From positions 1 through 64,000 of the forward strand of contig NW_026927443.1 of the NCBI RefSeq assembly GCF_032062105.1: a stretch of DNA of 64,000 bases, written 5' to 3'. Origin of the DNA: Saccostrea cucullata (Eukaryota). The notes below the pieces were generated by a model that worked only from the letters and a program-made list of their open reading frames with translations, searched no databases and was not told where the DNA came from. Positions 1-25,640 of the stretch are shown one piece after another. The position numbers and the translations under genes are program-made. How positions within the stretch are numbered: the stretch's first letter is position 1; every line of letters begins with the position of its first letter.

Positions 1-233
1 GATTTTACGGTTATCGTGCTTTTTCCTAAACATTTAGACAATCTTTGATTACTATTGATTCGCCGGCGATATGAATGTTGAATACTTTTTTTTAAAATTG
101 TTAACTCCGCAGAAACGCACAGCGACTTAAAACTTTCATATCATATAACCGACCGCCTCCTGGCGGCCGGTAAAAAAAAAACTTTCATCGCGCACTATCC
201 TCAAAATAATCTCTCTCTCTCTCTCTCTCTTCC

Positions 234-1448
234 ATAAATTCAAATTTCAGGTATATTTTTTGTATCATTTTGGTTAATGTGAAAGCGTAAATAATTATGT
301 GAATACTTTAAATAATGTTTATATGCTATAGGAGTGTGAAAACTAAAATTCATGCCAATGATAGAAAAAAACTTGGTCTTCCGTCCGATTTTTCGATAAG
401 ATGAGATATGATTTTGACAATGATTTTTGTTAAAACATTACATATTAAGACTTCTCTCATGTGATTTAATTTTTTGATTAATATAACATTTAAAAAAGCT
501 ATAAATGAAAGTTTCTTGGCTCTTCTGGGCCCTTAATTTAAGGGGTCACACCATTTACCTTCATATCAACTAATAAATTTCCATATTTGAAAGATTTTAT
601 TTTTGTTCAACAACAATTAAGAAATTTCTTTTCGTTGTGTAGAATAGAAATATATAGGGGCCAGCCCTTCAAGTCCTTAATGGGGCCGTTTTGAGAAATT
701 TGAATTGTTGTATATTGTTTAGAATACGATTCTGAACATCTTTTATTCAATACTACTTATCAAAAAATTTCTCCCTTTGGAGGTATAAAGAATCAAAAGA
801 TTTTGCATTTTGGCCCCTGGTGGCTCCTAATTACGTAACATAAAAATGTATGATCATAATTTAACAATATGGTGTTGCAAATTGTTAAGATGAATATTTT
901 TTCTTCAGTTATTTATTACAATGAAGAGATATCGATAAAGGACTTTTGGCCCTTCTGAGACCCTAATTTGAGAGGTCAGCCCCTTTTCCTTGGTATTATT
1001 TAAAAGGTTTTAACATTCTGCACAATTTCTCTTCAATATGTTTTAACAAATTATGAACAGGTAAGACGATATGAAACGTGAAAAGTCAAATTTTGTGAGA
1101 TGTTTCTGAAACATTTTTTGAGCCCTATCGAGCTAGAAAACTTTGAACACCCATATGCAACTCAGCAAACCATCCTTTACTCTCACTGAAAATCTCAACT
1201 CAATATCTTAAGTCGTTTAGGAGGAGTTACCGGGACAAAACGACCCTCTAAAAATCAGAAAATCGTCCATATCTCACGACCAGAAGTGACGTCTTCAATA
1301 TAAAAAAAATTATCAATAAGTTCAGATCAATATCTATCAGATCTGAAAGTTTCGTGAAAATCGACTGAGCCGTTTCCGAGAACTCGCGTGCACACAAATC
1401 GGTAAGAAAAAAATAATAGGGAAAAAGAAACCGAACGAAAACAATAAT

Positions 1449-1479
<31 letters not shown>
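234..1479. mobile_element. Non-autonomous Helentron/HINE-like element (right end clear, left boundary uncertain)
   Basis: Terminal hairpin gtcttccgttggaaacggaagac (~1450-1472) followed by cttaat. Internally repeated 'ggccc..taattt.ag.ggtcagcccc' units. No ORF. Confidence 0.5.
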
Positions 1480-1700
1480 TACAACAATTATCTAATCTGA
1501 AAAAAAAAACAAAGGACATGGGTATGTTATGTTATGTTTTTATTATCAGCTCTATGTAACAAGTAAATAACTTTACATTATATTGGAAAATGTTGTTGAA
1601 GACGACTACTTAAATAATTTGGCTTAATGAGCGTCTGATTTAATCACTTTTTTTTCAACCAAAAAAATAAAAGACAAGAATAATGTCAGGAATAAATATA

Positions 1701-2804
1701 TTAATTTTTCAGTCCTTTAGTGATGGCGTCCGGCGGTGGCGTCATTGACCAGTACCACGTGTTGAACCATTGAGGTAACAGAGAGACGGGGTAAAAATGA
1801 TAGATACAGTCAGGTCCACATCTATAACGTTTCTTTGGCATCACAGAAAACAGCGCGTGGTAAATGGCGGTGGTCACCAGGGACAGATCCTTACACTGAA
1901 CATTTGGAATACCATCCATCGATTCCTTTGCTACAAAACAAGAGTAATACTAAGACTCATTTTAGTAAATTTTATTCATAAAAAATAGTCTTCACCATAG
2001 TCTTACTTTCTTTGAACTTACTTTTATTTAACCATTGCTTTCCATAGAACTCCTGAACTTCTTCGTCAGCAGCTTCGTATGCTCTCTGTAGTGTAGCTTT
2101 CATCTCGTTTATATCTACGATTATGCTTGTTTTGAATGCCCCTGGCTGGATAGTATGAATCGTCACACCAACGTCATACAGTTCCCTTCTGAAAAGTACA
2201 GGTTTAAAACATCTGTAAAAATTATTTTTAATGAAAATAAAGTAAAATTCTTTCAAAGTATTATTTCATCTTTGAGAATGTTCTTAATGAATTATAGTAT
2301 ACAGTGGGACAAAGGAATTCAAGTTTAAAAGTCCATTTAAACAATTCAAATTAGGAGCAGAGCAAACACGGACCTCCAAAACATGAGAAGTGGGATTAGG
2401 TGCCATGGAGGTCACACCCACCGTGTGCTGCTTGCCAAGGTCGGAAAATAAAGGGAAAATCCATCTACAATTCAGTGTTTTAATTGCCTAAAATAGTATG
2501 AAAACCCTTAACTTTCGACTTAATGATATAATGTATTTGCTGACAAAGTCATTGTTTCATAGAACCATAGAACTTACTCCATGCTTATTTCAGAATAAAT
2601 AGACTAAATGATACACACTAAATAGGAAATATCAAGTTAGATGTGAAGATTTATCATTTATTTGCAATACTGTGTGGCTAGACTTTTTTTTCTTTTTTGT
2701 TTTAGACTCTAATACTTCAAACTTCTCCTCTCTTATAATTTCATTTTTTCCCTGTTTAAGATTATCAAGTTTATGCAAAATTGTTAGTATTTGTTTGTTG
2801 TTTA

Positions 2805-2847
<43 letters not shown>

Positions 2848-4108
2848 CTTCCCCGTAGAGGGCTACAAATGTTGTCGTATACTCGACACTTTGGACCATT
2901 GAGCAGTGATTAATATTTTTCTGTGCCAGCACCTAATGCGACACGGGACTTCGGCTTATAACAGGTCTCATCCGAAAGACCGGTCTCCACATCCCATAAT
3001 GGGATTCAAATCGGCGACGCAAAGATCAACTCCTTACTTCGCTACTCTATACAGCAGACGCTCTAAACACTGAGCCAAGCAGCGAAAAGTAAGAATTAGT
3101 ACCATGTAAATCAGTAGATCCTTACCTTAGGCATTCTGCCATACTTTCAACTCCAACTTTACTGATGACGTAAGGAACCCGACAGGCCTGTTCCCGGAAA
3201 ACACACTCGCTAGTGACATATACAAGTCTACCTTTCTCTTTTCTCACGAGAGGCAAAAATGATCTTGTCATGTTTATGGATCCAAACAGGTTTACCGATA
3301 AACATTTTTCTACAGCTTCAGGTGAATGAAACTCCAAAGGTGCGTGCAAAACCTGTAGACCAGCATTATTGACTAGCCCCCATAAACCTAAAGATGCAAG
3401 AATAAAATATATATTCCGGCAATCAAACACAAGAAAATCAAATGATCATCAGAAATTGCTATATTCAATCCTACAAAATGACTTTATTACTGATATTAGC
3501 AAATATGACCTATCACTGGGTAGTACTTTACCTGACTGTTTTAATAGCAGTTGTTAGACTATTGTTTTTGCACTAAATTTTAATACTGAATGTTCTGTTT
3601 ACTTGATCAATATAAAGGGTTCGGGGCGAGTATTAAAGTCCAATAGGGGATGCTTACCTAGGCACATGATCCCAAGTCAGGAAATTCCAGAGCTCTGTGT
3701 TATGCTCTGTTCTTCGATTTGTATTGTTTAAAGTTTTTCTGAGATTGATCACTAACTTATTTGATTTACTAAATTCTCACCTGAAGATTCTGGCAAATGA
3801 CGTTTGACAAATTCCACAGCATTACGGATGCTGATCTGATCCGTGACGTCAAGTTGTAAAACACGTAGTCTTGATGACGTATGTTTCTTCAGTTCTGTTC
3901 CACCCTTCTCGGTTAGACATGCTGCAAACACTGGTACACCCTGCTTATCCAGTAAACGGGCTAAAGCATTTCCAAAGCCAGAATCACATCCCGTTATGAG
4001 GACGTAGCGATTATTAATGCCATCAATAGATGTTTTTCCTTTGTGATACTCATAAATTTTGTATAAAATATACAAAAAGATTATGAATAGAAATAATAGG
4101 CAGCACAT
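1701..4108 (-). CDS. Short-chain dehydrogenase/reductase, SDR9C (retinol dehydrogenase / 17-beta-HSD6 / BDH1-like), copy 1, ~328 aa
   Basis: Exons 4108-3781, 3387-3126, 2188-2022 and 1930-1701, all GT-AG with consistent phases. Has an N-terminal hydrophobic anchor, the TGCDSGFG cofactor motif, LWGLVNNAG, catalytic YVISK, and the C-terminal 'HALFSVMPKKRY' typical of SDR9C. Confidence 0.92.
2340..2560 (-). mobile_element. Penelope-like retroelement 3' remnant (SDR1 intron 2)
   Basis: Reverse complement of the block 'cacggtgggtgtgacc...ggcacct.atcccac...ggaggtccgtgtttgctctgctcctaattt', also present at ~14.1, 20.9 and 28.6 kb. Confidence 0.6.
2790..3085 (-). mobile_element. tRNA-derived SINE (SDR1 intron 2)
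   Basis: On the minus strand: A-box-like tggctcagtgtttagagc, B-box-like gtttgaatccc, a central body ending ...gggacgttaaac, and an (aaac)n tail. Confidence 0.7.
3640..3755 (+). mobile_element. Short degenerate Penelope-like 3' remnant (SDR1 intron 1)
   Basis: 'ggggatgcttac.ctaggcacatgatcc...gagattgatcact' resembles the other copies. Confidence 0.45.
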
Positions 4109-6036
4109 GTTCGTATTTGTATCAGTTAAGATAGAAAACTCAGATAATGGTCAGGTTGATAACTAGGCCATATCTTCGGAAGGTATTGCGCTTCTGACCC
4201 AACCACGACAAACAGGTGTCATTTGTTCCTTAAATAGAGGCGACACTAGTATGTTGCAGATATTTCTGATGAGTTGGCCCCGTGTCACTCATAAGAGTAA
4301 AATCATTTTGCAAGTGATAATATACAATCAATGTTCAGTTGTTAACCTGTCGTATCATTAAAAAGAAACTACAGGTGAACTTCGCCTAAAGGTTGATAAA
4401 CATTGCAGTTCTAACAGGAAATAAAATGTGCAGTGTAACTGTCGACTTAAAATGAAACGGACAATAACCATTCCGAATGTACTGTAACATTCCTATTGTA
4501 TTGTACATGTGTATTTGCTTGCTTTAAATTCAATATTATTTTTTAAATACGATTTATTTACCTTTCACGAAAAAGAATCAGAAAGTTACTAAGTTACTAC
4601 ATACCAGGCACAACTATAACTATGCAAAGTATTTGCAGAAAAGTTTTCTCTAGGCGAGAATAAAGTACCATTGAAGTGGTGTTATGGGAAAGTAGGAACG
4701 ACAATAGCTAGTTAAGGAGGACTGCGGACAGCACCAAGGACATGGCAGAAGGAAGACAGTAGAGTGTCAAATGACGATTAAGAAGTTCAAGAAAAGAAAC
4801 AAATAGGGAGAAAATTAAGAAGGCAAAATGAATAGCACTAAATGGGGAGAAGCATGAAGATATAGACACACTTCTTGAAACGATATACTTCAGAACCAGC
4901 AAAGAAGAAATTTTAAAAAAAATTTAAAGAAGTGATATACATGATAGAAGAGACCGATTCGGAGTGGACAACACAGAAACATCATGGGAGAGAAAATTGA
5001 ACCTTCCTCGGTTTGTTTCTGGTGTGGTTGAGATGAGGATATCTACTGGAAACCAGTGGAATGTTTATTAAACAGAAAAAAAAATTTAAAGGAAGTAAAT
5101 TCGGAATAGAAGAAGGATCTCCATATATTTCATCAAACGCTCAGGGAGAATAACAGATTAGAGATTGTACTTCCATGTAACTTTTTATTTTATATAGTGT
5201 AACTGACTTCAGAACTTTAATCAACATTAATCAACATATAACTTCCGGATAGGAATTCAGACCAAATGTACTCGTATGTGAAATGTAGAGATACATCATT
5301 AAACATTATGGCTCATTACACTTTTAAACATTGATTTGTTTTATCAAATCCGTTCGTGTTCAAGATGGTCAGTTTAAAGTATACCCTTGCTTAAGAAAAA
5401 GAGATACACAGAAAAAGGCAAGTTGATGATCGAAGCTTGCTCAACTTTGAATTTTTAGAAATTCATTAGAAATTTATTTAAACACATCAGAAAAAGCTTT
5501 AACCAAAATAAATTTCTTTAGGTTAATATCTATGTACATTCTCAATAATTAAAAGAAAAGGAGCCGAGACCCCGGATGGATTTTACATGTAATTCGTACC
5601 TTGGCTGGAAAAGTCTCATGCCAGTTTACTAGTACTTGTTATGTGTGATGAAGATAATTGTTAGTGGATTTCCAGGTCTTTACTCTCTGAAGTGTTTCTT
5701 GATTGTATAAAATAATACCCCATGACTTATATCTTACACAGTTCTACTTATCAATGACCATTGGTTTATACCTGTACTTTAACAAGAAACAGTCATCAAA
5801 AGAATTCTCTGATGTAATGTTCAAATTGGATCTCGATGTATGAACTTCTAAAAATTGTTGAAACAACGACAATAAGCAAAAACGTTTCGACAAAATTGAC
5901 TCATCGCAGGAATAACCATGAATGTTGGTTTTCATAGATATTTTATTATTTTTATAAATTCTTTGTAACTTATGTACATCATACTTTAATACTTAATTAA
6001 ATGTATCCATATGACACACATTTTAAAATAGGAACT

Positions 6037-7991
6037 TCAATTATGTGTAACTGCTTCCGGCTGTGGATTCATTGCCCAGTACCAGGTATTAAACCATTCA
6101 GGAAGCAAAGAAATGGGATAGAAGTAATATTCACAGATTTTACCACATCGGTATCGTCTCTTCGGCATCACAGAAAACAGGGCGTGACAGATGGCATTTG
6201 TCACCGGGGACAAATCCTCGTATTGAATCTTTGGTATTCCTTCAAAAGATTCCTTTACTGTAAAAAAAAATATAAGTATTTCATTTGTCGTCTTTAACTC
6301 CCAACTCAGGTAAAGGTAAATTCATTATTTTGGTCTTACTTTTCTGTAACCATTGCTGTCCATAAAATTGCTTGACTTCTTCGTCCACTTCGTCAAACGC
6401 CTTCTGTAGAGCAGATTTCATCTCGTTAGGGTCTACGATCCGGGTTTTAAATGGTCCTGGCTGGATTGTGTGTGACGTCACACCAACTTGATACAATTCT
6501 CTTCTACAGTGTAAAGTGGTGATTTATAGGAAAACGTTTCTTATTTGTAATAACAAACAAGGGTAGTATTTTCATATCTTTCAATACGCCTATAAAACTT
6601 GTTTTCTTTAAGGATGCTATATGCATCATTTGTTTGTAAATTTTTAATAAAATTCTCACACTTCTGTTCACAAGCAAACATACAAGCAGCATTTACAGAT
6701 CAACATCATCATAAACTGTTAAATCCACTTTATAGTTAAAAATACATTATATAATATATTGCCTTGTTCTAAGAAATATGATCGTCATTTTCATTTTACA
6801 AGTACAACTGCATAAGTCATTGTAATTTATAAGTAATTTTGATTTAACATTTAACTGCTTAAGTCATTAAATGTAAAATCGAAATTATGCAGACATTGGA
6901 TAAGTAAGAATCTGAAAGTCAATACTGCGATGCTGCCAGCATCATAATGTTTCTTCTTTGTTTTTTTTTTTAAGATTTGTTGGAATGGAATCTAGATGTT
7001 TGATTTTACTTTCTTTGATTTAAAATTGAATAAAAGGCATGCCAAAGCATAGTAAATGGAACTTTGCCCCTCTCACCTTAGGCATTCTGCAAGAGCTTCG
7101 ATTCCAAATTTACTGATGACGTAAGGTGCCCGACACGGCCACTCTATAAAAGCACTGTCACTAGATATGTACACAAGTCTACCTTTGGCTTTTCTAAGGA
7201 GAGGTAAAAATGACCTTGTAACGTCAATCGAACCAAGTAGGTTGACCTTCAAACATTTTTCTATCGCCTCATGAGACTGAAACTCCAAAGGAGCATGTAA
7301 AACCTGTAAACCTGCATTGTTGACGATTCCCCACAAACCTAGAAATATTGAAGTGAGACAGGAATTGAACAAATACAAGAATGAAAGAATAATCGAAGAA
7401 CATGTATGTAAATTGTTATAGATTTAAAAATGGGGTGAGTTATTTAAAAAATTACATGTATAACCTTTAGAAAACATTATAGCACTTATATATCTTTTAA
7501 AAGACTCGAAAAAATCTGAGGTTAACTTTTTGTGGTAAAATAAATCGAAAATAATAATGATGTACGTGTACTAAGGTGGAATACTTTGTGGAGAATTTTC
7601 GCATTATCGGAAATAGAACTTATCTTAAGCTTAACATCGTACGAAAATGAAGGGATTATTTACCTGAAGATTTTGGCAAATGACGTTTAACAAATTCCAC
7701 AGCATTACGGATGCTCTTCTGATCCGTGACGTCAAGTTGCAGAACACGGAGTCGTGATGACGTATGTTTCTTCAGTTCTGTTCCACCCTTCTCGGTTAAA
7801 CATGCTGCAAACACTGGAACACCCTGTTTATCCAGTAAACGGGCTAACGCATTTCCGAAACCAGAATCACACCCCGTTATGAGGACGTAGCGATTATTTT
7901 TGTTCTCAACTGAAGTTTTCCCTTTGTGGAATTCATAAACTTTATATACAACATAAAGAACGACGAAAAGTGCCAATATCAGGCAACACAT
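6037..7991 (-). CDS. Short-chain dehydrogenase/reductase, SDR9C-like, tandem copy 2, ~324 aa
   Basis: Exons 7991-7664, 7338-7077, 6503-6340 and 6257-6037. Same intron positions and motifs as copy 1 (TGCDSGFG, NNAG, YVISK). Confidence 0.92.
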
Positions 7992-8885
7992 GTTGACATT
8001 AAATGAACGTCATTGATAAGCATTTCTTCACATGAAACCAGATAACAGAGCCATATCGAGCGTATCGCTTCAATCGAGTCAAGGGATATAGGGACTTCAA
8101 TCGGTCCTTTGAATATTTTATTATTCTCCCCCTCCCCATATAAGTACAATTAATTCTTTCGTATGGGTCGGGGGTATATTTTACCAGTGGAATGATTTAG
8201 AAATAAATATTCTTACCGACAACTTTTATAAAAGACTGTGTTTAAATATAATACATCTATTTAAACATCCACAAGTATTAAAAAAGTACATCCATGTACA
8301 TTTCATTTTATTAGTAAATTATTTCAATCCGGAATAAAGGTAAGTATTCACCCCTTTTACCTTTTTGCTCAAGCAATATTATTCTGAAGGATATCAATCT
8401 TTTGTTTAAAAAGTTACAAAACTAAGCATTTATAAAAATTGTTGGGACTTCTGATCAAAGACATTTTTAATATTCATTCATCAAAAGAGTATTCAAAGAT
8501 CATGTACTGCCTAGAAAAGCTAAAGCACAAAAGACAGAAAATATCGAGGTTTTAATAAATTTAATGGTTATACATTGATAAACAGTCTTCTACTCTCTGT
8601 GGTCGACTAATGGATGGTCAGTAAGGTGGACGGCGTTGTCAAGGTAACTAGATAAATGTTCTCATCTATGCTCTTTCAACACATGATCGTGGGGATTGGA
8701 GGACGCGATGGACATTAATGCACCAAGATTGGTCAAGGTTTCTCCAGGACACCCGTCTTCGACTAATGATTTTGAAGAGTTCGGTTCGTGTGTTTGAGTT
8801 CTTGATTTGAGGACTACCAAGCTATTTTTATCTTTCTTTAAACATTGTAAAGATATTTCATTTAGTTCGTCTGATTCATTTCCTT

Positions 8886-9065
8886 TTACCACCTGACCTC
8901 CTCTACATATAGGTTCTCCTGCAACAAGAAAAATGTGAACATAAATTTAACTGACTCATCAAAACCAATGCACCAAGGCAATACTTATATTTTTCAGAGA
9001 AACACAAAAATTACTTACTCTTTCTATTGACATTTTCAGTATAGCAAACTTCTTCGGATTCGGCG
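8886..9065 (-). CDS. Probable alternative 3' exons of the membrane-protein gene
   Basis: Exons 9065-9019 (tag|...|gtaagt) and 8918-8886 (ttgcag|). Phases fit the TM-exon donor and give ...TPNPKKFAILKMSIERENLYVEEVRW*. Confidence 0.5.
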
Positions 9066-9290
9066 CTACAATTATTTGAATACAAAAAACAAACAAAACA
9101 AATTTTGTCTTTCTTTAATCTTCTCAAATGTAAATTTCATATACGATCAAACATTGATTTGTTATCAGAATGATTTCTGAAGGATATATAAACATGCATA
9201 AAAAAGGTTAGGTTCAAACTGTCAATAGAATGAGTGTTCATTTCATGCAGTAACATTTTAAAAAAATATATATTTTCTATAGCTAGCATG

Positions 9291-11333
9291 TTATATGATT
9301 ATATCAGTTAGAGTGGTGTCACGTGGACCCAGTGTGCTGTGCGGGTCCTGGGGCTCTGGTTTCAGGACACCATTCTTGCCAAACAGAACATCTAGAGACC
9401 CACTACTCTCTGTGGGTTTTACTCCTCCTCTGCTGGGCATTCTCGAGTTCATACCGGTTTTGTCCTTCCCAAAATTGGACACCTCCTCATTCGGAGCCCT
9501 TTTGGCCTCGTCCGAAGGAAGAATTGTTTTTTCTCGTTTCCCTAGTCCTTCTGGTGGTTGATCTGGAAAAGTAACCCTCTTCTCAGGCTTAACACTTTCG
9601 GAATTTTCACCCATTTCTTTATCAGGCTTATTTTTCATATCCTCTTTACTTATCACTCCATTAGGTTGATTCGTCTTCAAAACATTCGCCTCGTTTTCGG
9701 TAAGGTCAAACACGGTGACTGTTCCATTCGGTATGTTCTTCTCTTCCTTGTGTTCTGTTTTATCTACTTTATCTGCTTTATCTTTCTTTACTTTATCTCC
9801 ATTTGTTTCATCTATTTCTGGCACTTTTTGTTCCTTGCTTTCCTTATCAGCATCTACATCTTGCAATTCGCTGTCAATTGTCACCAGTATTTCCGGTTGT
9901 GGAACCGCCTTGTTGTCATCCATTTTCTTGTTGTCTGTGTTACTGGATATATCATCACTAGATGTGCTACTGTTGGTGTTATTATGACCACTATCAGTGG
10001 ACCTGTTGTTGTTATTAAGACTATTATCAGTGGACCCGTTATTTTTATTGCTGAGATTCTTATCTTTGGTTTTGCTGCTGTTGTGGTTCGTATTGACCAA
10101 AGGTTCCGGCATTTTCTTCAGACTGCCAACCGTTCCAACAGTAATCAAAGGATTGATTTTTCTCTCTAAAATGACACATAATAAAATAATGTTCTCTGAT
10201 TTAGTGCTCTTTACCTCTGCATATTTCTGACGTAATTTAAATTATAAATATTGTTGATGAATATCATAAAATAAAATTTTCAAGAAAATATTTAATATAC
10301 TTCGACATTAAGATATATTATATCAAAATTTATAAAGCACTAAATAAACCTACTGTAAAACAGCATTTTATAAATACAGACCATCCAATAGGTGAACCTA
10401 GGCATTGACCTGAATATTATTAAAGTAAATTCTGCTCTGCTTATGTTCTCCTATTGTTTGATGATTTCAGCAATTAACTTAAGAAGAGACAGGACACCAT
10501 TGATGTCCCAAAAATAAAAAAAATTTAACTATATTCAAATAAAGGAATAAATCACTATTTATAGATTTGATTCTTACTGGTGAAAAGTTTTTCCTCTTGC
10601 TTCTTTTTGAAATATCTATACCCCAGTACTGCCCCTATAATGATTGCTATAACTAATACCGTCACCACCACGCCCGCCACAATGGCGGCTGTGTTGTCCG
10701 AATCTTCTGGCGAACTCGGTGTCTCTATGTCTATGGTTTTAAAAAGCAAAGATTACAGTACATGCATGCATAAATGATAATCTGTAATTAGTAAAGTATT
10801 AAGGTTTTTATATCCTTATACTTAATAAGAAATATAGTTTTTACTTACAACAGGTCGCTGTAAACATAAAATGTATTTTTCATTAGAAACTTCAGCAAAA
10901 TGATAGTTTAGAATAAAAATGAATATCCCATATACATAAATGGTTCAGTCAAAGTAATACTCGCTCTCGAAAAACAACACAGAAATCATTTAATTAACCA
11001 TTAGTTAGAATAATTTGAAATATTGTACTTTTTGGAGATAAAAACTAAGCATTACATATTACTTGAATGTTTTCTTTCAAAAAAAAACTTGCATAGGGTG
11101 TCTTCTTTCATTAAAAGACACGGCCATTCCCTTTGTTCATTTCAAATCAGATCATGTTTAAAAATATTTTTAAATAGATCAAAAGAATTTTGTCACATTC
11201 AGTAATTGTATCTCGGAACGGATTTAAACCTATGGTCATGAGAAAATATTCTGTAACGTGTAAAACAAAATGAACGACATCCTTACTATTGGCTACAAAA
11301 TAAAGCAGACTTCCCGGGGCACTCGGTTTGATA

Positions 11334-11364
<31 letters not shown>

Positions 11365-14300
11365 CTTTATTTTAAGAGGGTGACCCGATTAGTGCAAGGC
11401 ACTAGTCTTCCTCGGGGCCCTCTAAGCATGTTCACAATAATACAATAATGAAATCATTGTACAATAATAAATAATACGACAAGACGTAAAAATACAAGTA
11501 CATATAGATTTCAGGAGATTTTAGTTGCGGCATGTTATTATGAATTTTTCTACATTTTTACGAAATGTGTGTAAATTCTGTGAAAAACGTATGTACAAAG
11601 GTAGTTTGTTCCATAAATGAACACCGGAATAATGAAAAGAATTTTTAAATTGATTTGTTCGATATTTCGGTAGATGAAGGTCATAGTTTGTTTCAGATCG
11701 TAGAGCATAACTACTAGAAGAAATAAATTCAAAAGAGTCTCTTAAATAAGTAGGTGCCATACCATGAAGTGTTTTGTACAGTAATATATATTTATGAAAA
11801 TCAATCAACTCGTAAATAGTCAGCCATCCAAGTTTTTCGAATAATGGTAGTGAAGGGGCATCATAAGCCACATCTAGTATAATACGGGCTGCCCTTTTTT
11901 GCAATTTGGTAGCTGTTTGACCAGAATCACAGTTCTCTCCCTTTTCTGATGCTGTGACATTTTCCCCATCAAATTCAATCACCTAAAATGTTAAAATATC
12001 TTCTTAAAATTGACAGTTGGTGATTGACAAGAATTGCAGAAGCATTTGAAAAATATCAAGTTCCAAATGAAAAATAATCAAGCTCTAAAGTAAAATAAAA
12101 CCACATACAAAACAAGTGAATCTGTAAGCTCTTGGGGATACAGTAAGAGTGGTATCAAAGTTGATGACACTCTGGTAATATGTGCTGCCATTGTTGAGGG
12201 TAGCGACACAACCCACATGTCCTCCCGCTGTAAAAAGAATAAATAGATATATAACATGCTTTATTTTCTTCACTGTGCAATTGTTTTCAAATCCTTTATC
12301 AGAAAGATGACAGCAATTCGAATGAAAGAACGCGGGACATTGGTGGTCACTATCTTTGAACAGGAGTCTCTACAGAAGTTTACCATTTTTGATAAGTCAA
12401 CCAAATTGACTTAGTGTCATTTCATTTAAGCGAATTGCAGCCAAAATAAAAACACGAGTTAAAACTAGTAGCAAGCAATGTGTACATTGTGGACTCATAA
12501 AATCTATGATAAAAGGTTGTGTCTTGTTTCTGTGAGAAAGTACAAGGTAATTTAATCGAGTCACGTGATGTAAAATAGTTATAAACTTTATAACGAAAAA
12601 ATATATAGAAACATCTCCTGATTTATCTGCATGTATTTGTGAAGCTTAAAGATTGCACTTCTAGAATATATTATATCTTTCAACAGAGCCGAACACAGCA
12701 GTAAATCAAAATTGTTAAGAAAGGTCGGAAAAACAACAAACTTCATCAATAATACTTAGGATACTTTTTGGTTGACAATCTGGCCGAAAATGAAAGATTC
12801 TGAATTGTCCATAAAACTAGCTATTGAATTTGTGATTACAAGTATCTAAACTTCCTGAACATAACAAAAGATACCAGAGAAAGCCACTCTGGTGTTGCAT
12901 AGACTGTAATCAAAGACCATGTTGGTTCTGTTGTTGTTACAGACGTCTAGGAGGGAGTCGCCCCAATTCAGGCCACACTCAGCTGAGGAGGAAGTGTGAA
13001 TGTAAGTGAACACCCCCAAGAATGGCTTAGCGCAGTACGACATGGCCTCAGATTCAGAACCTACAGAAAATACAGTAGTGAAAAATGTAGAAAAGGGTAC
13101 TATTAAATATGACTGTATACATGGTGAACGTTTATTTCTTTTATAATCGTATCATTGAGATTTAAATGTACTGATACAATAATCAAAATATATTTACTTC
13201 CACTTAAGAATTAATATATATCTATATAATCTGTTATCATGCGTCAATACGATGATTTTTTTCAACTCGACATTTAGATATATCGAGGACGTACTGTCCA
13301 TTTTTCCATTCCTATGTCGATACGATCCCTGTGAGCTTGAGATACTGTATAAAAGGAAATTTTTGCCCCGTTTTATTTTCGCTCCTTTCGACCTTACCTC
13401 AGTTGGGCCATTTTAAACAGGGGTGATTTCAAAGAATACTGCTAAAATTTCTTTTAACAAAACCATGACTGGTGCAAAACTGTTTGTAAGGGCGAAAGGG
13501 GCGAAAATAAAACGGGAGCGAAAATTTCCCTGTATACAATAATAGATACCACATAAGCTGACACATGAGCCTGATGAGTCGTTATGTAGTGTATATTTGC
13601 ATCTGCACTCTTAACTATCTCTTTTGTTATATACTAGTAGTTTTAAACTGAATATAATTTCCCCCTAAAATGAGGGTGTTGTGTTTCTTTTGACTGGCAG
13701 TATATGTTTCATATTAGGATATTTATCTGACAACAAAGCCTAATGATAAACGTGATGACTTAAACTTTTTAATAGTCAAATTCACTTACTTATGCAGACA
13801 TTTCTTCATCACCTGCATACAGTATTTATATCTCTCAGCTGTTTCGATACGCAAGAGCATGATTTACGTATGTACATTTGTAAAACGAGGTAAATTATTG
13901 ACAATAAAGATGACGAAACAAAAATATCAGCGACTTGTTTGAAGTCCTTTCGTAAGTTCTATGGTCGATACAATCACTGACAATGACTTTTTCAGCAAAT
14001 ACAATCTATCGCTGTCAAATGCTGACTGATGTTTTAAAACTAATTGTTAGACCATAATTTACACTCTTAATTTTCGAGTGATTTTTCCGTTATTCCCGGC
14101 CATGACAAGGGGCACACGGCGGGTTGACCGGTCAGCAAGAGATGCTCATTCCTCCAGGTACCTGATCCCATCTCTTATGTTTTGGAGGTTTGTGTTTGCT
14201 CTGCTCCAATTTTGTAATGTTTAATTAACGTTTGCGTTTGAATACTGTTTGTTATCTCCGCAAACATCATGGAGATGTTGTTTATAATCTTGTACGTCTT

Positions 14301-15774
14301 CCCATAGTGGGTGCACAAGAGAAACTTAAGCCCTGCGAAATGTGCGGTTTTAAACTTACCGGTCCTTTGGTGACTTTATCGTCGTATGGATTTAAAAAAT
14401 TACAATCATTGTTTTATAACATGCACAATAATGAAATGGTGCAAACTCATTTAGCAATCCATCCCATTTTTTTTTTTGTTTACATTTGCTGAATCGGGGT
14501 AGGTTTTTTTCTGCATCCGCTGCAACCGTTAATTTCTGTACAAACTAAGAATGCATTTCATTATTTAAACATTTTACCTTCCTTGACAAAGACATGGAAA
14601 AGCTCGATAGGCTGCCCAGTTTGACAGACATCTGTATACACCATGTACAGTCCTGTCCCGAAATTGTTTTCTGAAATGTGGAGAATCTTAATATAATTGA
14701 AATGTAAAATAAGGACATTTCTTGATACATTATAGCTTTATAAAAAACAAGAGGTCCAGGGGCCACATCGCTCACCTGAGTACTGTGGTTAGGAGAAAAA
14801 GCAAAAATCAGTTTAGTATTGATAAGCTTAAATACACGAGTGGTCCAAACCTTTCCCTAAAAGGCAGAAAGGGTTAGGAGGAGTGGGTACAATATGAACA
14901 AAATTGAATCTACAGAGCTTTCAAATAAATATGACAAATCTTGGCTTTGCTGTTCTAGAGATGTTTTTCCTATATACTCCTATGTTAAACTGTGATCATC
15001 CATTGTGCCTCCACCCTACCTAGGGAGTCATGATTTTGAACAAAGTAGAATCTACACGTCCTCTGGATGCTTTCACATAAATATGAACAATCATGGCTTT
15101 GGCGTTCTTAAGAAGAATATTTTTAAAGATTGTTCCGATATACTCCCATGCTTAACTTTCATTGTCCATTGTGGCCCCAACCTACCCCAGGGGTCATAAT
15201 TTGAACAATCTTGAATCTATACCACCTGAGGATACTTCAATATAAATATGACGAACTATGGCTTTGATGTTCTCAAGACTTTTCCTATATACTCCTATGT
15301 CAAACTTTGTTCATCAATTGTGGCCCCACCCCTTTCCCAGGGGGTCATGATTTGAACAAACTTGAATTTACACGACCTGAGGATACTTCCATATAAATAT
15401 TACCAATCATGGCTTTGCTGTTCTTGAGAAGAAGACTTAGAAGAGGCCCTGGGCCTTGAGAAGTGAGTCATAAGTTTTAAGAACTTGTGCCAAATCCCTT
15501 TGTAGTTAGAAATTCCAATAAAATATGTTCAAACCAAGAAGTTTTTCAAGACTTTCCCTATATTTACCTATGTAAAACTTTGAGCAGCCATTGTGGCCCC
15601 GCCCTACCCCCGAGAGTCATGATTTGATCAAACTTGAATCTACACTACCTGAAGGTACTTCCACGTGAGTTTCATCTTTCCTGGTCAAGTTGTTCTTGAG
15701 AAGAAGATTTTTAAAAGATGCCTTTTTTTTTTTGAAAGCGAGAGTGGCCCTTTTCAACCAAGAATACTTTGTGT

Positions 15775-15808
<34 letters not shown>

Positions 15809-18365
15809 GAATGAGATGAAAATGTGAAAAGTTTATGTCGACAACAACAACGACAACGACTACAACAACGAAAAAAGACAAAGGACAAATTAAAATCCCT
15901 TAAGGCAATTAGCCGAAGATAATATAAGAATAAATCTGTAAAGAAATATGTTTTTATAATCTTTGCATGTTTTCTTTAAATCTAAGTCAGAAAAATTATT
16001 TATGTAGACCCTCAAAAAATTCAAACAAGATGAACAAGGACCAGATCACACACAGTATTGAAAAGTTTAAATATACTTGTAAAAGTAGGTTAAGGGGAAG
16101 GAGGGGGGAGGGGGTATTTGACCAAACTTAAATCTTTCTTTTCTATGGATGCTTTTAAATTAACATTACACATAATGGCTTTGCTATTTATAAGATGAAA
16201 ATTTTTTATTGATATAACCTTTCCTTTGTGTATCTATGATCTACTTTAAGGGATTCTCTATTCTCCTAGTTGGTCATGATTTGAACAAATTTAAATCTAC
16301 ATGACCTTTTTCAATGCTTTTTTATTGATGATCAATAATAGCTATGTTGTTCTAGTGAAGAATTTTCATGATTTTTCCTAAGTATTCCTACAATAAACCA
16401 TGATCATCGATTGTGGCCCCACTCAACTCCCGCGGGTCATGATTTGAACAAACATGAATTTACACTACCCGAGGATGCTTCCATATAAATAAGATATATG
16501 AACAATGAGAGTTTTGCTGTTCTCGTCGAGAGGAATTTTAAAGAATTATTCTATGTAATCCTTCTTAAAACTTTGATCACCCATTATGACCCAACCTTGC
16601 CCCAGGAGTCGTGATTTGAATTACACTTGAATCTACACTACAAGAGGATGCTTCAGTTTAACTATGACCAATCATTACTTTGTTGTTCTTGAGAAAATTT
16701 TTTTTTCAAAGACTTTCCGATGTATTCCTATGTTGAACTTTGATCCCCAATTGTGGCCCCACCCTACCCTTGGGGGTCATAATTTGTATAAACTTGAATC
16801 TATGCTATCTGAGGATGCTTTAATATAACTTTGGCCAATTATGGATTTGCTGTTCTTCAGAAGAATATTTTTAAAGATTTCCCCTTTGTATTCCTTTGTT
16901 AAACTTTGATCACCCATTGTGTGGGTCATGATTTGAAAAAAAAACTTAAATCTGCTCTACCTGAGGATGCCTCCACATGTGTTTCATCTTTACTGGCCCT
17001 GCAGTTCTTGAGAAGAAGATTTTAAAAATACTTTTTAAAGATTTTCCCTGAGGATGCTTCCACATGAGTTTCATCTTTCCTGGCCCAGTGGTTCTTGAGA
17101 AGAAGATTTTAAAAATGTTACATTACTTTTTCACTAATTCATTATTATTTCCCCTTGGAAGAGGGTGTGGCCCTTCCTTCAAACAAATTTGAATCCCCTT
17201 CACGCAAGGATACTTCGTTTTAATTTTGGTTGAAACCGGCCCAGTGGTTCTTGAGAAGATGATGAAAATGTGGAAAGTTTACAACAACGACAACGACGAA
17301 AGACAACGGACAAATTTTGATCAGAAAAGCTTATGTGAGCCTTCGTCTCAGGTGAGCTAAAGTAAAAACATACCTCTTGAATTATAATAGTAGTAAGAAT
17401 ATGTAGTTATCGACGTCAGCTCCAAACACAGATACCAGTAGTAAGTAGTCCCACCTGCATTACTGTATGTATTGGCAGTCCTTGAATTTTTAAAATAAGT
17501 TTCAGGTTATTTCACAGTTTACTTTAGCCAATAACTAGTACTGTGAATCTGATACTAGTTATGTGCAGTGTTGTATAGTTTCTGATAAAAGTAATTTTCT
17601 TTATGTCGACATAATTAAAATAATATATTCTTAGTATATATAGACACCTGTACGTCAGGAAAATTCACAAATACTGACTCTACGAATTTCACATTTGAAT
17701 TTTTCTTATCTTTTTTATTAAACAGGAATATTGTGGTAATTAACGGATTAAGATCTTTAATCCTTTTCAAATGGTATGGTAGGTTGAGTTAAAAAAGAAA
17801 AAAAAAATGTGCATAAACTTAATATCACTATTTAACTTTTGACAAAAGAAGTAAAATTATCAGGTTTGTTACTGATTGTTCAAAGAATTTTATCGCCTTA
17901 ATCAATAACATACATGAAGAAGCGGTTATACCATCTATGATCTTACCTTAAAACGTAGTAACTTCCTGAAGTAAAATCACAGGTAAAATTTGAAGGTGTG
18001 ACTGAGAAGCCGTCCGCTACAATATCATACTGTGATAAGTACATGATGGTGTCCGTAAATTCTGCATTTCCAAAATTACTGCTGATCCAAGTACCCCGTA
18101 AAGTATCCGGAAATGTACAGGCGCCATCTTTCAATTTTAATAATTGTGAAAAAACAATAAAATGCCAAAAATTGCAAAAAGACAAAATTTTATGATTAGA
18201 TGACATATTTCATAGAAAGTTATCTTCTGTGTAAAGAAAGGTAAAATCTTTAATAAATATTTAAATCATTTAACCTTTTTTTATAATCTTTGTTTGCTTA
18301 CCTCCAGTGCGTTGAAAAGAGGTGAAAATAATTTTCAATGTTATCCAAAATATTAATTTTAACAT
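9291..18365 (-). CDS. Uncharacterised type I membrane protein (signal peptide, Cys-rich ectodomain, TM, low-complexity tail); exon 7 interrupted by a LINE
   Basis: Phase-consistent exons: 18365-18302 (MLKLIFWITLKIIF signal), 18127-17947 (CTFPDTLRGTWISS), 17480-17374, 14670-14578, 13060-12875, 12227-12109, 11982-11908 + ~11335-11287 (split exon), 10730-10578 (TM AAIVAGVVVTVLVIAIIIGAVLGY followed by RYFKKK) and 10165-9291. Confidence 0.8.
11339..11907 (-). mobile_element. 5'-truncated L2/CR1-group LINE (ORF2 C-terminus, 3' UTR, (ATT)n tail) inserted in a coding exon
   Basis: KLQKRAARIILD...LFEKLGWLTI...YKTLHGMAPTYL...SFHYSGVHLWNKLP...FRK is the canonical L2/CR1 ORF2 tail, with stop at 11521. 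It is followed by a 3' stem-loop (agaggg...ccctct, inner tagtgc/gcacta), AATAAA and an (ATT)n tail at ~11340-11363. Confidence 0.9.
13343..13541. mobile_element. MITE, Tc1/mariner-like (TA-flanked CTGTA...TACA termini)
   Basis: Imperfect ~45-bp TIRs: tactgtataaaaggaaatttttgccccgttttattttcgc / gcgaaaataaaacgggagcgaaaatttccctgtatacaata. Confidence 0.7.
13715..14270 (+). mobile_element. Penelope-like retroelement fragment (RT C-terminal region and 3' block), decayed
   Basis: Degenerate translation resembles (Y)DKRDD-NF-IV-F-YLC...SPAY-SIYISQLFRYARA, a PLE RT thumb-like motif. It is followed by the shared 'ggcacacggcggg..gaccggtcagca.g.gatgctca.tcctcc.gg.acctgatccca' block. Confidence 0.65.
14747..17361 (+). 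mobile_element. Helentron-associated (HINE-like) element(s) carrying a ~150-170-bp tandem satellite, probably two units
   Basis: 5' acaagagg...gctcacctgag and 3' ctcaggtgagctaaa form subterminal inverted repeats. About 9 monomers contain gatttgaacaaacttgaatctacactacctgaggatgcttc. (aac/gac)n microsatellites lie at ~15840-15870 and ~17281-17310. Resembles the oyster Cg170/HindIII-type satellite elements (from memory, not searched). Confidence 0.8.
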
Positions 18366-19811
18366 TTTATCCAAAGAACACATTCGTTAGACTTAATTCT
18401 GATTTTGTTTCGTAACACATGGTTCAGTCTTGTAATTTAATTCTTATCTGTTAAAATGTGTTAAGAAAGTGGAAGACTAGCTTTGTATGTAACTAAACCA
18501 CGATTTACACCCTTCACTTATTCTTTTATTTTGTTCAAACCTTTCATTACCATTAGGGAGGTTTCGTAATACAGACGTGATTTACACCGTACAATAGATT
18601 CCTATATACTAGTATTATACTTCATTAGTAGTTAGAAAATCCACCTATAGTGATTGTAATAAAACTGTGAATGAAACAAAATAATATAAATTAAATACTA
18701 GTATAGTTCAAATTTTTGGAAATCGTTGAGATAAAGTAACCGATCAATAACAAAATTTTTAATGCGTTTCCATATTATGGAACTTCATCCTTTGGAATGG
18801 TCTTGACACAGGTAATGCATGTGTGAAATACGAAAATCCTAGGCTACCTTCTCTCATTCAAAAAGTAAGAATAAGATTTTAAGTTTTTTTATACAATTGC
18901 AAAAGGTAGATATCATTTAAATGTACTAAATCAAACTGTTTAATTTTTGTCAGAGAAGTAATAAACAGCTTTTCATTAGAAAGACAGAGGAGAAAAATGA
19001 AGGCATCATAAAGATAAAAAATAATAAGAGAAAAAAAATGGAATTTAAACCATTTTAAAAAAAGAACTATTAAACTAAACTATGGAAAGAAAGAAAGAGC
19101 TCTAACTTACTAATTTATACTAATTTAAATAAAGCCAGAAGAGAAAACAAGAGTGCTAGATCCCAAAAAATAATAAGGGAAAGGAAGAAGAAAGATAGAA
19201 TGTAAAAAAAAATCCTTAATTACAGAAAAAAATAACTATATGATGAAAGAAAGTAATAAAAAGTTCTAAATTTAATAAAAGAAACTGATGAGATAAATTG
19301 TGCTTCATTTTGACCCCCCCCCCCCCCAAATCAAAACATTCAGTTAAAAAAAAACAAGAAACTAAAACATGAGAGGAACAATTAATTGAATCTATTTTTT
19401 AAATGAAACATATGGAGATAACGAACAGTATTCAATATCCAAGTCCATAAAACAGTACAAAATAGGAGTATATTTAGATTTTGCCCCAAAAGAAAGAAAA
19501 TGACTTACATTAAAGAAATATTTTCTTAAAAATGTGTTTCAACAAGAACGTTTTGTAATTGAAAATATTTGTGAGAGTGACTTCTTTAACTTTCAAAAGA
19601 AGTCAAACTAAACTTTTCTATGTTCTTAACCAGAATATTGTACAGAAGGGATTTTATAACCTCCGAGATTTCTCCTATAATTTTGTTCCTCATAAAAAAA
19701 GAGAGAAAACATCATGCATACCCCACATATGGGGGCGCGAAATGGTGACATCCGGGGGTGCGGAATTCGAAGCGGAATTTGCAATGTTCGTTGACCTGAT
19801 TAGCTTTCCTA

Positions 19812-20101
19812 CAGTGATTGCGATGAAAATAATCCTAAGTTCACTTAAGGCGGAACACAGTGATATCCCAGCTTTTACTCGTTTCCCAGCTCGGGATTCG
19901 TCCTAGAAATACATGAACACCTCTGCAATACCTGGCAAGAGCATTAGGGAACGCAAATTAGACCATTTCTTTGTGAAAATTGGTGCCTTATGTATCATTC
20001 AGAGAATTCCACCTCAAATAAAGGGGACAGACTTCAATTTAAGCGTGTGGCACTCGGGAGGGGGGGGGTAGAGATTTTAGTGGAGGCTGGGGGAGGAATA
20101 A
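19812..20101 (+). repeat. Left arm of a ~300-bp long-range inverted repeat
   Basis: Reverse complement aligns with 25641-25966 (e.g. gtagagattttagtggaggctgggg / ccccagcctccactaaaatctctac; cccagctcgggatt / aatcccgagctggg). Confidence 0.85.
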
Positions 20102-20285: not shown

Positions 20286-20583
20286 TATACACTTATCCAC
20301 TGGGTGTGAGTGGGATAGCTCTTTTATCAAACCCGCGACAGAGAACTATTCCCCGAGGGCTTGCCCGAGGGGAATAGTTCCTGCCAAAGAAATTCAAACC
20401 TCAGAAATTAAATTATACATCAGTATAATAAAACGCTTATCCACTGGGTGTGAGTGGGATAGCTCTTTTATCAAACCCTTGACAGGAACTATTCCCCTCG
20501 GGCAAGCCCTCGGGGAATAGTTCTCTGTCGCGGGTTTGATAAAAGAGCTATCCCACTCACACCCAGTGGATAAGTGTATAATA
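20286..20583. mobile_element. Fold-back element with ~95-bp perfect terminal inverted repeats plus an internal palindrome
   Basis: 20286-20383 is the reverse complement of ~20485-20581. 20436-20575 is itself a near-perfect hairpin centred on cccctcgggcaagccctcgggg. Confidence 0.8.
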
Positions 20584-22784: not shown

Positions 22785-23342
22785 TTTTAAAATTATGATA
22801 AACAAAACCTTTCTGAGAAAAATTTTCTCAAAAAAAAAATTATTCCAGACCTGTTACATGTATTGTAAATGGTATTCGTGGGGTTTGTACCCCCAGCAGT
22901 TTTTTTTTGTGTGGATATTTTGGTAGTATAATAAGCATTACTTGATACATGTATTGATAATGTAACCCTTTTGTTTCTATAAGCCTTTTTAAACGTGTCG
23001 TTTTAGAATGATACACTCAAAAACGATATATAAAAACGGCTTATAAATTAAAGACAACCGGGGGGTCTACTCACACACACACACACCCCAAGGCCTGTGA
23101 GCATCACTTTCAATTGAGAATTCGCTAACTACATGTACTACACTACACAACTCCTGGTGAAAAGTGGAGTGGACTCTTAACTAAATTGACTTAAAGTATG
23201 TCTCGGGAAAAAATCGAATGTTGTGTTATAAAAATGTATTCTAAAGGATAGTGGGTCTTTGCTCCATGATTTTGTTAACCAAAAAATGTAAATTTTACGA
23301 AAACTTCCTTGCAGTTGGGACTTAAAACTTTACAACAGCAAT

Positions 23343-25073
23343 AACTAGAATAATGACGCTTGATTGAGCTCTTTTTGTGGCAAGATACTGCAATAAGACT
23401 ACAGCTGTAGGAGTGGCTATTAATAAACTTTTATAGTTTTTTTTTCCATTTTAGTAACCATGGCAACATCATTCTTCGAAATCAAAAATCGATAGACAGA
23501 ATTGTGTATCTTAGTGTAGTCTACTCGTGTGCCAAGTTATACTGAAATCAGACCAAAACTGTAGGAGGTGTAGCATTTTGAAAGCATTTCAGAGAAATTT
23601 CTATTTTTAGAAACAAAGGCAACACCGTTCATTGAAATCTAAAATGGATATGCAGAATTATGTATCTTGGTGTAGTCTACTTATGTGCCAAGTTATAATG
23701 AAATCAGACCAAAACTGTAGGAGAAGTAGCATTTTGAAAGTATTTCACAGAAATTCCTATTTTTAGTAACCACGGCAAAACCGTTCACCGAAATCAAAAA
23801 TCGATAATCAGATTTATGTATCTAAGTGTAGTCTACTTGTGTGCTAAGTTATATTATTATACTTTCATGTTAAATACTAAAATCTGATTGGTTTAGACGC
23901 AGTTAACAATCCGTTCGATTACCCTGAGCCTTAGCAACACACGTGACAACGGGTAACACAACGGTAATGCCACATGCGTGGAAATTATGCGCGTACGGTT
24001 CACCGTAGAATTCTCAAAACGTCAGTTGCGCGTTTGAAAGAACCGGAATTAACTTGACGTCAATAAAAGCTTGCGTCCCATATAGCTTACTTGAAAACAA
24101 CAAACGACAGACGATACATGCTTGCGAGTGTAGAAAAACATGCTTGCGAGCCAGAAAAAACGAAACTTTATATGATAAATGACTCTAATTCGAGTATCAA
24201 ACAAACAATAAGGAGATTAGTGAACCGGTAAGTGTGAAAGCTTTCTATATATGAACGTAAAGACGATCGACGGTTTTTTTTTTTTGCTGACGTCCTAAAT
24301 CAATAAGACATTCAGTATAATAAAATAAATGGTGCCTGTTTTGGAGGGTAACATTTGAAATTGACACCCCTCGGAAAACCATTGTCAACCTCCGCTGACG
24401 CGTCGGTTGACAATGGTTTTCCTTGGGGTGTCAATTTCAAATGTTACCCTCCAAAACAGGCACCATTTATATATTGAAATCAGACCAAAACTGTAGGAGG
24501 TGTAGCATTTTGAAAGTATTTCACAGAAATTTCTATTTTTAGTAACAAAGGCAACACCGTTCATCGAAATCTAAAATCGATAAATAGAATTATGTATCTT
24601 AGTGTAGTCTACTTATGTGCCAAGTTATAATGAAATCAGACCAAAACTGTAGGAGGAGCAGCATTTTGAAAGTATTTCACAGAAATTTCTATGTTTAGTA
24701 ACAAAGGCAACACCATTCATCGAAATCAAAAATCGATATACAGAATTATGTATCTTAGTGTAGTCTACTTGTGTGCTAAGTTATATTAAAATCAGACCAA
24801 AACTGTAGGAGGAGTAGCATTTTGAAAGTATTTCACAGAAATTTCTATTTTTAGTAACCATGGCAACTCAATTCATCAAAATCAAAAATCGATACACAGA
24901 ATTATGTATCTTAGTGTAATCTACTTGTGTGCCAAGTTATACTGAAATCAGACCAAAACTGTAGGAGGAGTAGCATTTTGAAAAATTGTTTACAGACAGA
25001 CGGACAGAGGGACGGACGCCGGACGCATTACTATCGCATAAGCTCTTCTGGTCTCTGACCAGTAGAGCTAAAA
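23343..25073 (+). mobile_element. HINE-like element with a 156-bp tandem satellite, interrupted by a 620-bp insertion
   Basis: Monomer marker 'tcagaccaaaactgtagg' occurs at 23548, 23704, 24480, 24636, 24792 and 24948. (acag/acgg)n microsatellite at ~24992-25017. 3' hairpin agctcttctggtc-tct-gaccagtagagct followed by aaaaa. Confidence 0.85.
23855..24474 (+). mobile_element. Non-autonomous element with a terminal ~146-bp hairpin (Crypton-like by inference), inserted in the satellite
   Basis: Interrupts the 156-bp register by exactly 620 bp. Flanked by a tatatt direct repeat. Near-perfect palindrome at 24325-24470. Confidence 0.8.
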
Positions 25074-25640
25074 ACGGAAAAAAGGCCGACTGCAATCGAA
25101 AAATTGTTTTAAAGTATGAGAAAATGATCCCTTTTGGCCTCTTAAGTGTACTAGTATGTATGCTATTTTATTGGCAAATAATTTCAATCTTAGTAAGATT
25201 TTTGCAAATTGTGGAGATTCTTCAAAAGAGATTAATGTTAAATGAAAGATGAAAGGAAATAGTGTTATAATTGAGTTTTAATATTTCACCTTCATTTGTC
25301 GCACCATAGGATTAGCTTGCAATTATCGACTATTTTCTGTAGTAGTATAAATGGCAAAGTTCAGATTATCATAGATCTGCTGTGTAAGAAATTGGATAAA
25401 TAACTAATTTGAATTAAGTTTCTCAATTTTTTCAAATGTATTTTCCTTGTAGAAGTTGAAAGTACACGCGGTTTCCCTGTGAAATCTGTCAAAGACTTAC
25501 TCAACAAAATAAAATTTAAACAAACATAAAATGTGTCATTAATCAGAATCTTTTATATTGATCATTGTGGTAAAATCTCATTTAAACAATTAAAACAGAG
25601 CAGATTTTAAGAATTAAGATTGATATACAATGACTAAAAA

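Follow-up and report, generated by a model that had tools for sequence, protein, structure and literature searches.

Insertions of long interspersed nuclear elements (LINEs) into coding exons are a known kind of mutation. In the mouse, six of 12 L1 mutations are exonic, and they lead to exon skipping, aberrant splicing, truncation, exon loss or chimeric transcripts; the exonic cases given in Table 5 of the source, in the part of it that was accessible, are Frem1 heb, Reln rl-Orl, Scn8a med, Atp7a Mo-ca, Ttn mdm and Nr2e3 rd7 (PMC6466679). For human ATRN, the accessible text describes a soluble form made by polyadenylation inside an L1 (PMC3554611). Here we describe a LINE that interrupts exon 7 of a gene in the oyster Saccostrea cucullata; the gene has nine exons and is predicted to encode a single-pass membrane protein. 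The gene lies on a stretch of 64,000 nt (assembly GCF_032062105.1, contig NW_026927443.1, positions 1-64,000), which we call the window. We conclude that the inserted copy is probably a heterozygous loss-of-function allele and that an intact second copy is likely the other haplotype. The locus likely holds an ordinary broken allele, not the source of a useful secreted protein.

As in the mouse exonic L1 mutations, a LINE of a kind that is often 5'-truncated disrupts a coding exon (PMC6466679, accessible part). The oyster case differs in that the element belongs to the CR1/L2 group, has a repeat tail and made no duplication, and its RNA outcome is a prediction. As in ATRN, the LINE places a stop codon and a poly(A) signal before the transmembrane (TM) exon of a single-pass membrane protein. 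The ATRN L1, however, lies in an intron and serves as an alternative last exon, and the membrane form survives (PMC3554611, accessible text). The oyster LINE interrupts a constitutive exon and takes away a predicted core strand; it is very young, and the second copy lacks it. The normal membrane form can no longer be spliced from the allele that carries the insertion.

Molluscs commonly have hemizygous regions with many transposon genes, according to the available portion of a preprint (bioRxiv 10.1101/2020.09.15.298695), and transposons have been proposed, in the available portion of a second source, as one origin of the high genetic load seen in oysters (PMC5804265). Like these bivalve hemizygous insertions, the one described here would be a heterozygous structural variant; it is one concrete example that can be typed by polymerase chain reaction (PCR), not a load estimate. 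A literature search, with most subscription journals outside its scope, found no paper on an exonic transposable-element insertion in the heterozygous state in an oyster.

Structure of the insertion

The host gene runs from 18365 to 9291 on the minus strand. Its nine exons are open and have GT-AG borders apart from the insertion. The features of the inserted copy are as follows.

18302-18365, minus: exon 1, with the start codon and the predicted signal peptide (hydrophobicity and N-terminal helix of the structure model)
17947-18127, minus: exon 2, barrel 1 (weak DUF7044 match on P0002)
17374-17480, minus: exon 3
14578-14670, minus: exon 4
12875-13060, minus: exon 5, start of DUF7042 (barrel 2)
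12109-12227, minus: exon 6, ending in phase 0 (one RNA-type contig from another animal, depth 2.7, joins it to exons 5 and 7)
11908-11982, minus: exon 7, 5' half, 25 codons
11331-11907, minus: LINE insert, 577 nt, 5'-truncated, in sense and in frame within exon 7, no target-site duplication, 1-2 host bases lost
11521-11907, minus: last 128 codons of LINE ORF2 and stop codon (residues 943-1070 of ORF2 of the full-length copy L049)
11880-11888, minus: weak in-frame cryptic donor, last exon base 11886, used by the public model P0001
11757-11765, minus: best in-frame cryptic donor in the LINE, last exon base 11763
11376-11421, minus: 3' stem-loop of the LINE
11331-11371, minus: AATAAA (11371-11366) and (TAT/ATT)n tail
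11287-11330, minus: exon 7, 3' half, with a conserved Gly and the last beta-strand of barrel 2; donor at 11287
10578-10730, minus: exon 8, transmembrane helix (19-residue hydropathy 3.14)
9291-10165, minus: exon 9, low-complexity cytoplasmic tail to the stop codon (no Pfam match)

From the exon 7 acceptor at 11982 the frame stays open for 153 codons, up to a TAA at 11523-11521, and an earlier note on this DNA was right in describing a LINE fused in frame within a coding exon. The exon measures 696 nt with the insert and 121 nt when empty. We searched the assembly with 11330-11910, which gave 592 candidates, of which 40 were scored, with 41 matches listed; the best 25 loci were used, 24 of them outside the window. 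Several of the 24 have 3' flanks in common, being duplicates of one site, which leaves about 19 sites. All 24 match the insert from 11907 on, and upstream of this position they continue as LINE whereas the window continues as host exon. The 5' end of the insert corresponds to position 5501 of L049, within ORF2, and its 3' end is the tail of the family. The 3' hairpin has a z of -2.48, with five of 200 shuffles equally stable, and the repeat tail occupies 11364-11331, so the stem-loop, AATAAA and (ATT)n tail reported earlier are all in place.

Host exon 7 resumes at 11330, and its donor at 11287 is in phase 1 and compatible with the TM exon at 10730, as had been proposed. The empty exon reads ...TATTKP..., and the 'I' of IKPSAPG in the inserted copy is built from tail letters plus one host letter; the earlier coordinates are correct, except that the host does not resume at this isoleucine. 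A target-site duplication was looked for at the junction and none was found. Such duplications are usual for L1 and often absent in CR1/L2 elements, and one of the six other copies with a visible 5' end (L046) has one of 7 nt. The 5' truncation, the intact 3' end with its tail and the empty homologous site agree with target-primed reverse transcription, of whose hallmarks the target-site duplication is the one missing here. By chance, about one in six truncated coding insertions would be expected to give a sense, in-frame fusion (two orientations and three frames).

Over the 542 nt ahead of the tail, the insert is 98.3-99.6% identical to the 24 other copies, and the nearest copies differ at two letters. 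The insert has two letters that none of these copies shares; they lie in the 3' untranslated part. The high identity shows that the insertion is recent, as the earlier note had suggested. The 128-codon frame is open in 21 of the 24 other copies and therefore reflects the youth of the family and is uninformative on selection; we rejected it as a sign of selection.

The full-length copy L049 has a 1070-codon ORF2 frame with Pfam matches to Exo_endo_phos (149-335) and RVT_1 (625-874). Its ORF1 (L049:1640-2671) carries an N-terminal coiled coil, a GDSL esterase and two zf-CCHC knuckles. A further 158-codon frame lies directly upstream of this ORF1 (L049:1197-1670). The piece fused to the host begins 68 residues past the reverse transcriptase (RT) domain and differs from L049 at two residues; a Pfam scan of the 128 residues at E 0.5 gave no match, and the catalytic FADD motif (791) lies outside the piece. 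Judged by sequence, the fused piece is an ORF2 tail and not the RT tail of the earlier claim.

A 3' stem-loop followed by a short tandem-repeat tail instead of poly(A) is a feature of CR1/L2 elements. With an apurinic-type endonuclease (APE) followed by RT, an esterase ORF1, the hairpin and the repeat tail, the element appears to fit the CR1/L2 group, at group level, and the ORF2 C-terminus had been correctly recognized as L2/CR1. In the accessible parts of PMC10294476 and PMC4120745, bivalve LINEs of this group (Jockey superfamily) share the two ORFs, the order of APE and RT, the esterase-type ORF1, the 3' hairpin, the short repeat tail and the low-divergence recent copies. Recent bursts of CR1/Jockey activity are reported there for most bivalve species examined (PMC10294476). 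Esterase-type ORF1s occur in CR1 and L2 subgroups, and in the sample of the source, as far as accessible, they come only from vertebrate subgroups (PMC4120745). Unlike the entries of Table 1 in the accessible part of that source, ORF1 of L049 joins the esterase to two CCHC knuckles.

The host protein

The host protein is recognized by the DUF7042 family (PF23069), with scores of 36.7-39.5 bits for P0001-P0003 against a Pfam cut-off of 27. P0001 and P0002 are Saccostrea cuccullata proteins by their source names; the name 'bromodomain-containing ... -like' of P0001 was rejected, as there is no such Pfam match. A literature search on DUF7042, with most subscription journals outside its scope, found no paper. 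At least eight distant DUF7042-exon matches lie on one contig (C21005:291000-332000), which is either an array of tandem copies or a single family member with multiple repeats.

The structure model of the intact copy has a mean predicted local distance difference test score (pLDDT) of 89.8 and consists of two halves (28-151 and 158-291), both of which align to lipocalin-like beta-barrels in VIA-align (best Z 8.7, rmsd 3.1, 104 aligned). APCDD1 aligns with Z 6.0 and an rmsd of 3.4 over 108 residues; these scores are within the range of common folds. A Foldseek search of the PDB with the model gave no match at E 0.001. The host may be a ligand-binding cell-surface protein.

The insertion point lies after residue 276 of the intact protein. 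In the model, the severed segment forms the last strand of barrel 2 (283-290). We aligned P0002 with 50 shorter, ectodomain-covering relatives (51 rows), drawn from 218 relatives at E 0.001, of which 150 were listed. Gly283 is present in 47 of the 51 rows, and positions 286 and 288 are hydrophobic in 48 and 49 rows, respectively (Ala and Cys counted as hydrophobic).

A second copy with an empty site

On contigs C11472 and C7750 of the same assembly, exon 7 is uninterrupted. The two contigs overlap at 98.7% identity and together are collinear with window 175-18592. Their nine exons encode 625 codons with a single terminal stop and GT-AG introns. Among 70 scored candidates of a search with P0002, only two close versions of the gene were found, and the others are 31-48% identical. 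A downstream exon of a short-chain dehydrogenase-like (SDR-like) gene finds a single partner at 99% identity, on C11472, and the assembly contains one copy of the upstream TRIM gene, as expected of an uncollapsed haplotype bubble. From this collinearity, the two copies are likely such a bubble and the animal is likely heterozygous.

Exon 7 is also whole in P0003 (source name Saccostrea echinata) and P0007 (Crassostrea virginica), and a DNA contig of another animal (run X20) bridges the empty site (L044:8925) with 84 and 306 letters on either side. These findings agree with the earlier proposal that the exon was formerly contiguous, and the insertion is probably polymorphic. The intact copy has about 7.3 kb of extra sequence in intron 7 (C11472:29654-36972, L044 ~1350-8670). 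Run X20 contains a 4.2-kb contig that matches at ~98% a portion of this extra sequence, which is therefore probably another mobile element.

The two copies are not evenly similar. Their identity is 96.6-99.4% in 500-nt bins over 3700-9500 and then falls to ~89% from ~10000, with the step inside the last exon. The divergent block covers window ~9700-18600, where exons are 89-96% and introns further up 79-88% identical. In the ectodomain, synonymous divergence (dS) is 0.21 and nonsynonymous divergence (dN) 0.047, giving a dN/dS of 0.23 between the copies. In the inserted copy, the LINE is the only lesion found and the other eight exons are open. The two proteins are 91.7% identical to each other and 84.6% and 88.6% identical to the S. 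echinata protein. Given so deep a divergence, the inserted copy does not descend directly from the empty one; on a cell-surface gene, this divergence suggests old balancing selection or introgression.

Predicted products of the inserted copy

We computed the products of four routes. Splicing of the whole exon 7 at 11287 gives 403 residues (275 from the host and 128 from the LINE) without TM. Polyadenylation at the AATAAA of the LINE would give the same 403 residues. Skipping of exon 7 shifts the frame, as the earlier note had stated, and gives 251 residues and an immediate stop. Finally, nine GT sites ahead of the stop rejoin TM exon 8 in frame, so loss of the TM is not forced by the insertion as had been claimed. 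As a crude measure of donor strength we used U1 pairing energies, which are -5.0 for the natural donor, -2.7 to -9.6 for eight real donors, -4.7 for 11763 and -1.5 for 11886, the last of these being weaker than all eight. Precise removal of the LINE by splicing was rejected, since 1-2 host bases are gone and there is no donor/acceptor pair at the LINE ends. The normal protein cannot be made from the inserted copy, in agreement with the earlier statement on the membrane protein. All four routes lose strand 283-290, and the ectodomain is thus not capped whole, as that note had assumed.

In the whole-exon transcript, the stop lies 234 nt ahead of the next junction and 387 nt ahead of the last, with more than 1.2 kb untranslated behind it. 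Transcripts are marked for nonsense-mediated decay by a stop more than 50-55 nt ahead of a junction, or by a long 3' untranslated region. This transcript is therefore a likely decay target by either rule.

The RNA and DNA data consist of assembled contigs of other animals, with four of 24 runs on the window and four on the empty copy (X1 and X5 on both); matches to the empty copy were dominated by intronic repeats. In the four runs on the window, no junction of host exon and LINE was found among the matches listed, and contigs of X5 and X9 that reach 11906-11907 continue into ordinary LINE sequence.

We propose that target-primed reverse transcription stopped early and left a 5'-truncated LINE in exon 7, as the biology of LINEs would predict. 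Most transcripts would be spliced at 11287, carry the premature stop and be degraded by nonsense-mediated decay. Skipped transcripts would stop immediately, and cryptic donors would yield a membrane-anchored form. All of the resulting proteins would lack the last strand of barrel 2, and they are predicted to fold poorly and to be retained in the endoplasmic reticulum, neither secreted nor displayed. This probable loss of function agrees with the fallback of the earlier note, which allowed for a null.

It should be noted that several points weigh against this loss-of-function reading. The predicted misfolding is derived from the model of the intact copy and not from a model of the chimera. The 50-55 nt rule comes from mammals, and molluscs may differ. 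An intact AATAAA lies 150 nt past the stop and could make exon 7 terminal, and the public model of the locus, P0001, keeps the TM by way of cryptic donor 11886. The argument for allelism is drawn from collinearity rather than from read depth, and with a dS of 0.21 the two copies are unusually distant.

Alternative explanations

If the AATAAA of the LINE did make exon 7 terminal, the mRNA would escape decay and the TM-less protein of 403 residues might be secreted in real amounts. The frame open to 11521 includes the signal peptide, the LINE-derived residues contain no TM-like stretch (maximum hydropathy 0.81) and the AATAAA is intact. We nevertheless consider this outcome unlikely. The product has lost the last strand of barrel 2. 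The AATAAA is followed after 79 nt by the natural donor, and in vertebrates U1 bound to a nearby donor suppresses cleavage. None of the 24 other copies has an A-run of at least eight within 60 nt of the start of the tail; with the tail made by repeat copying, there is no sign that the AATAAA is used. The human ATRN soluble form provides a precedent in the accessible text (PMC3554611), but the L1 there is intronic, so that both ATRN forms are possible.

Alternatively, cryptic donor 11763 (or 11886) could join the LINE to the TM exon and give an anchored protein with partial function, in which 48 (11763) or 7 (11886) LINE residues replace the last 15 residues of the ectodomain. Donor 11763 pairs with U1 nearly as well as the natural donor, and P0001 consists of window exons 4-9 joined through donor 11886. 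This donor is weaker than the real ones, however, and both products still lack strand 283-290. P0001 itself starts in exon 4 without exons 1-3 and the signal peptide, and it shows one gap of 11 residues (a 33-nt 'intron' cut from the last exon) where the other copy has a 30-nt deletion. This suggests that P0001 was modelled on transcripts or proteins from a different allele; we take it as a fitted prediction and did not accept it as evidence of real splicing. A functional rescue by this route is distinctly unlikely.

The copy in the window could also be a decaying local segmental duplicate instead of an allele, with the insertion possibly on both chromosomes. The low identities of exons and introns and the dS of the block would suit such a duplicate. 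Against it, the downstream flank rises to 97-99% identity and has the same SDR genes, in unchanged order, and the age implied by the dS is incompatible with a 99% flank unless conversion has occurred. As the upstream TRIM gene is also single, we regard a duplicate as very unlikely.

A more elaborate version of the secreted outcome has the LINE poly(A) turning a deeply polymorphic double-barrel protein into a segregating soluble decoy, capped with an ORF2 tail, which would bind ligand in the haemolymph through its intact barrel 1; this we hold to be highly improbable.

That a repeat was mis-joined into the exon during assembly is barely credible, although a search for runs from the same animal found none (best word share 0.23, about the share of the LINE in the stretch) and the matches listed for the four runs on the window include no joining contig: both exon halves flank the insert in order and within 1-2 bases, and these together with the truncated 5' end and proper tail are the anatomy of a real insertion.

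Other features of the window

Two tandem genes on the minus strand (1726-4150 and 6053-8009), which we take from their sequence to be of the short-chain dehydrogenase-like family, have exons 70-86% identical to each other, and there is a third partial match on C11472. A single-frame TRIM-NHL gene (RING, B-box and NHL) occupies 30530-32602 on the plus strand. At 27159-28291, plus strand, there is a frameshifted ORF2 fragment of a non-LTR retrotransposon, presumably RTE-like. An inverted repeat of ~300 nt at 20286-20580, 82% self-complementary overall, resembles a miniature inverted-repeat transposable element (MITE) or a fold-back element. A tandem array with a period of ~156 nt spans 23311-25075 and recurs, in collinear orientation, close to the end of C7750. 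In the upstream synteny search, 19500-20000 matched a repeat.

Significance

A secreted functional form, if true, would be a one-step origin of a soluble isoform, and the evidence here is against it. The public gene model P0001 hides the exonic insertion behind a weak cryptic donor. The divergent block between the two copies may deserve more attention than the insertion. On our reading, the locus illustrates cleanly the harm that an active LINE family does to a gene under purifying selection, here in the genome of a wild-type oyster, and the inserted copy would provide a PCR-typable natural knock-out allele of an uncharacterised membrane protein.

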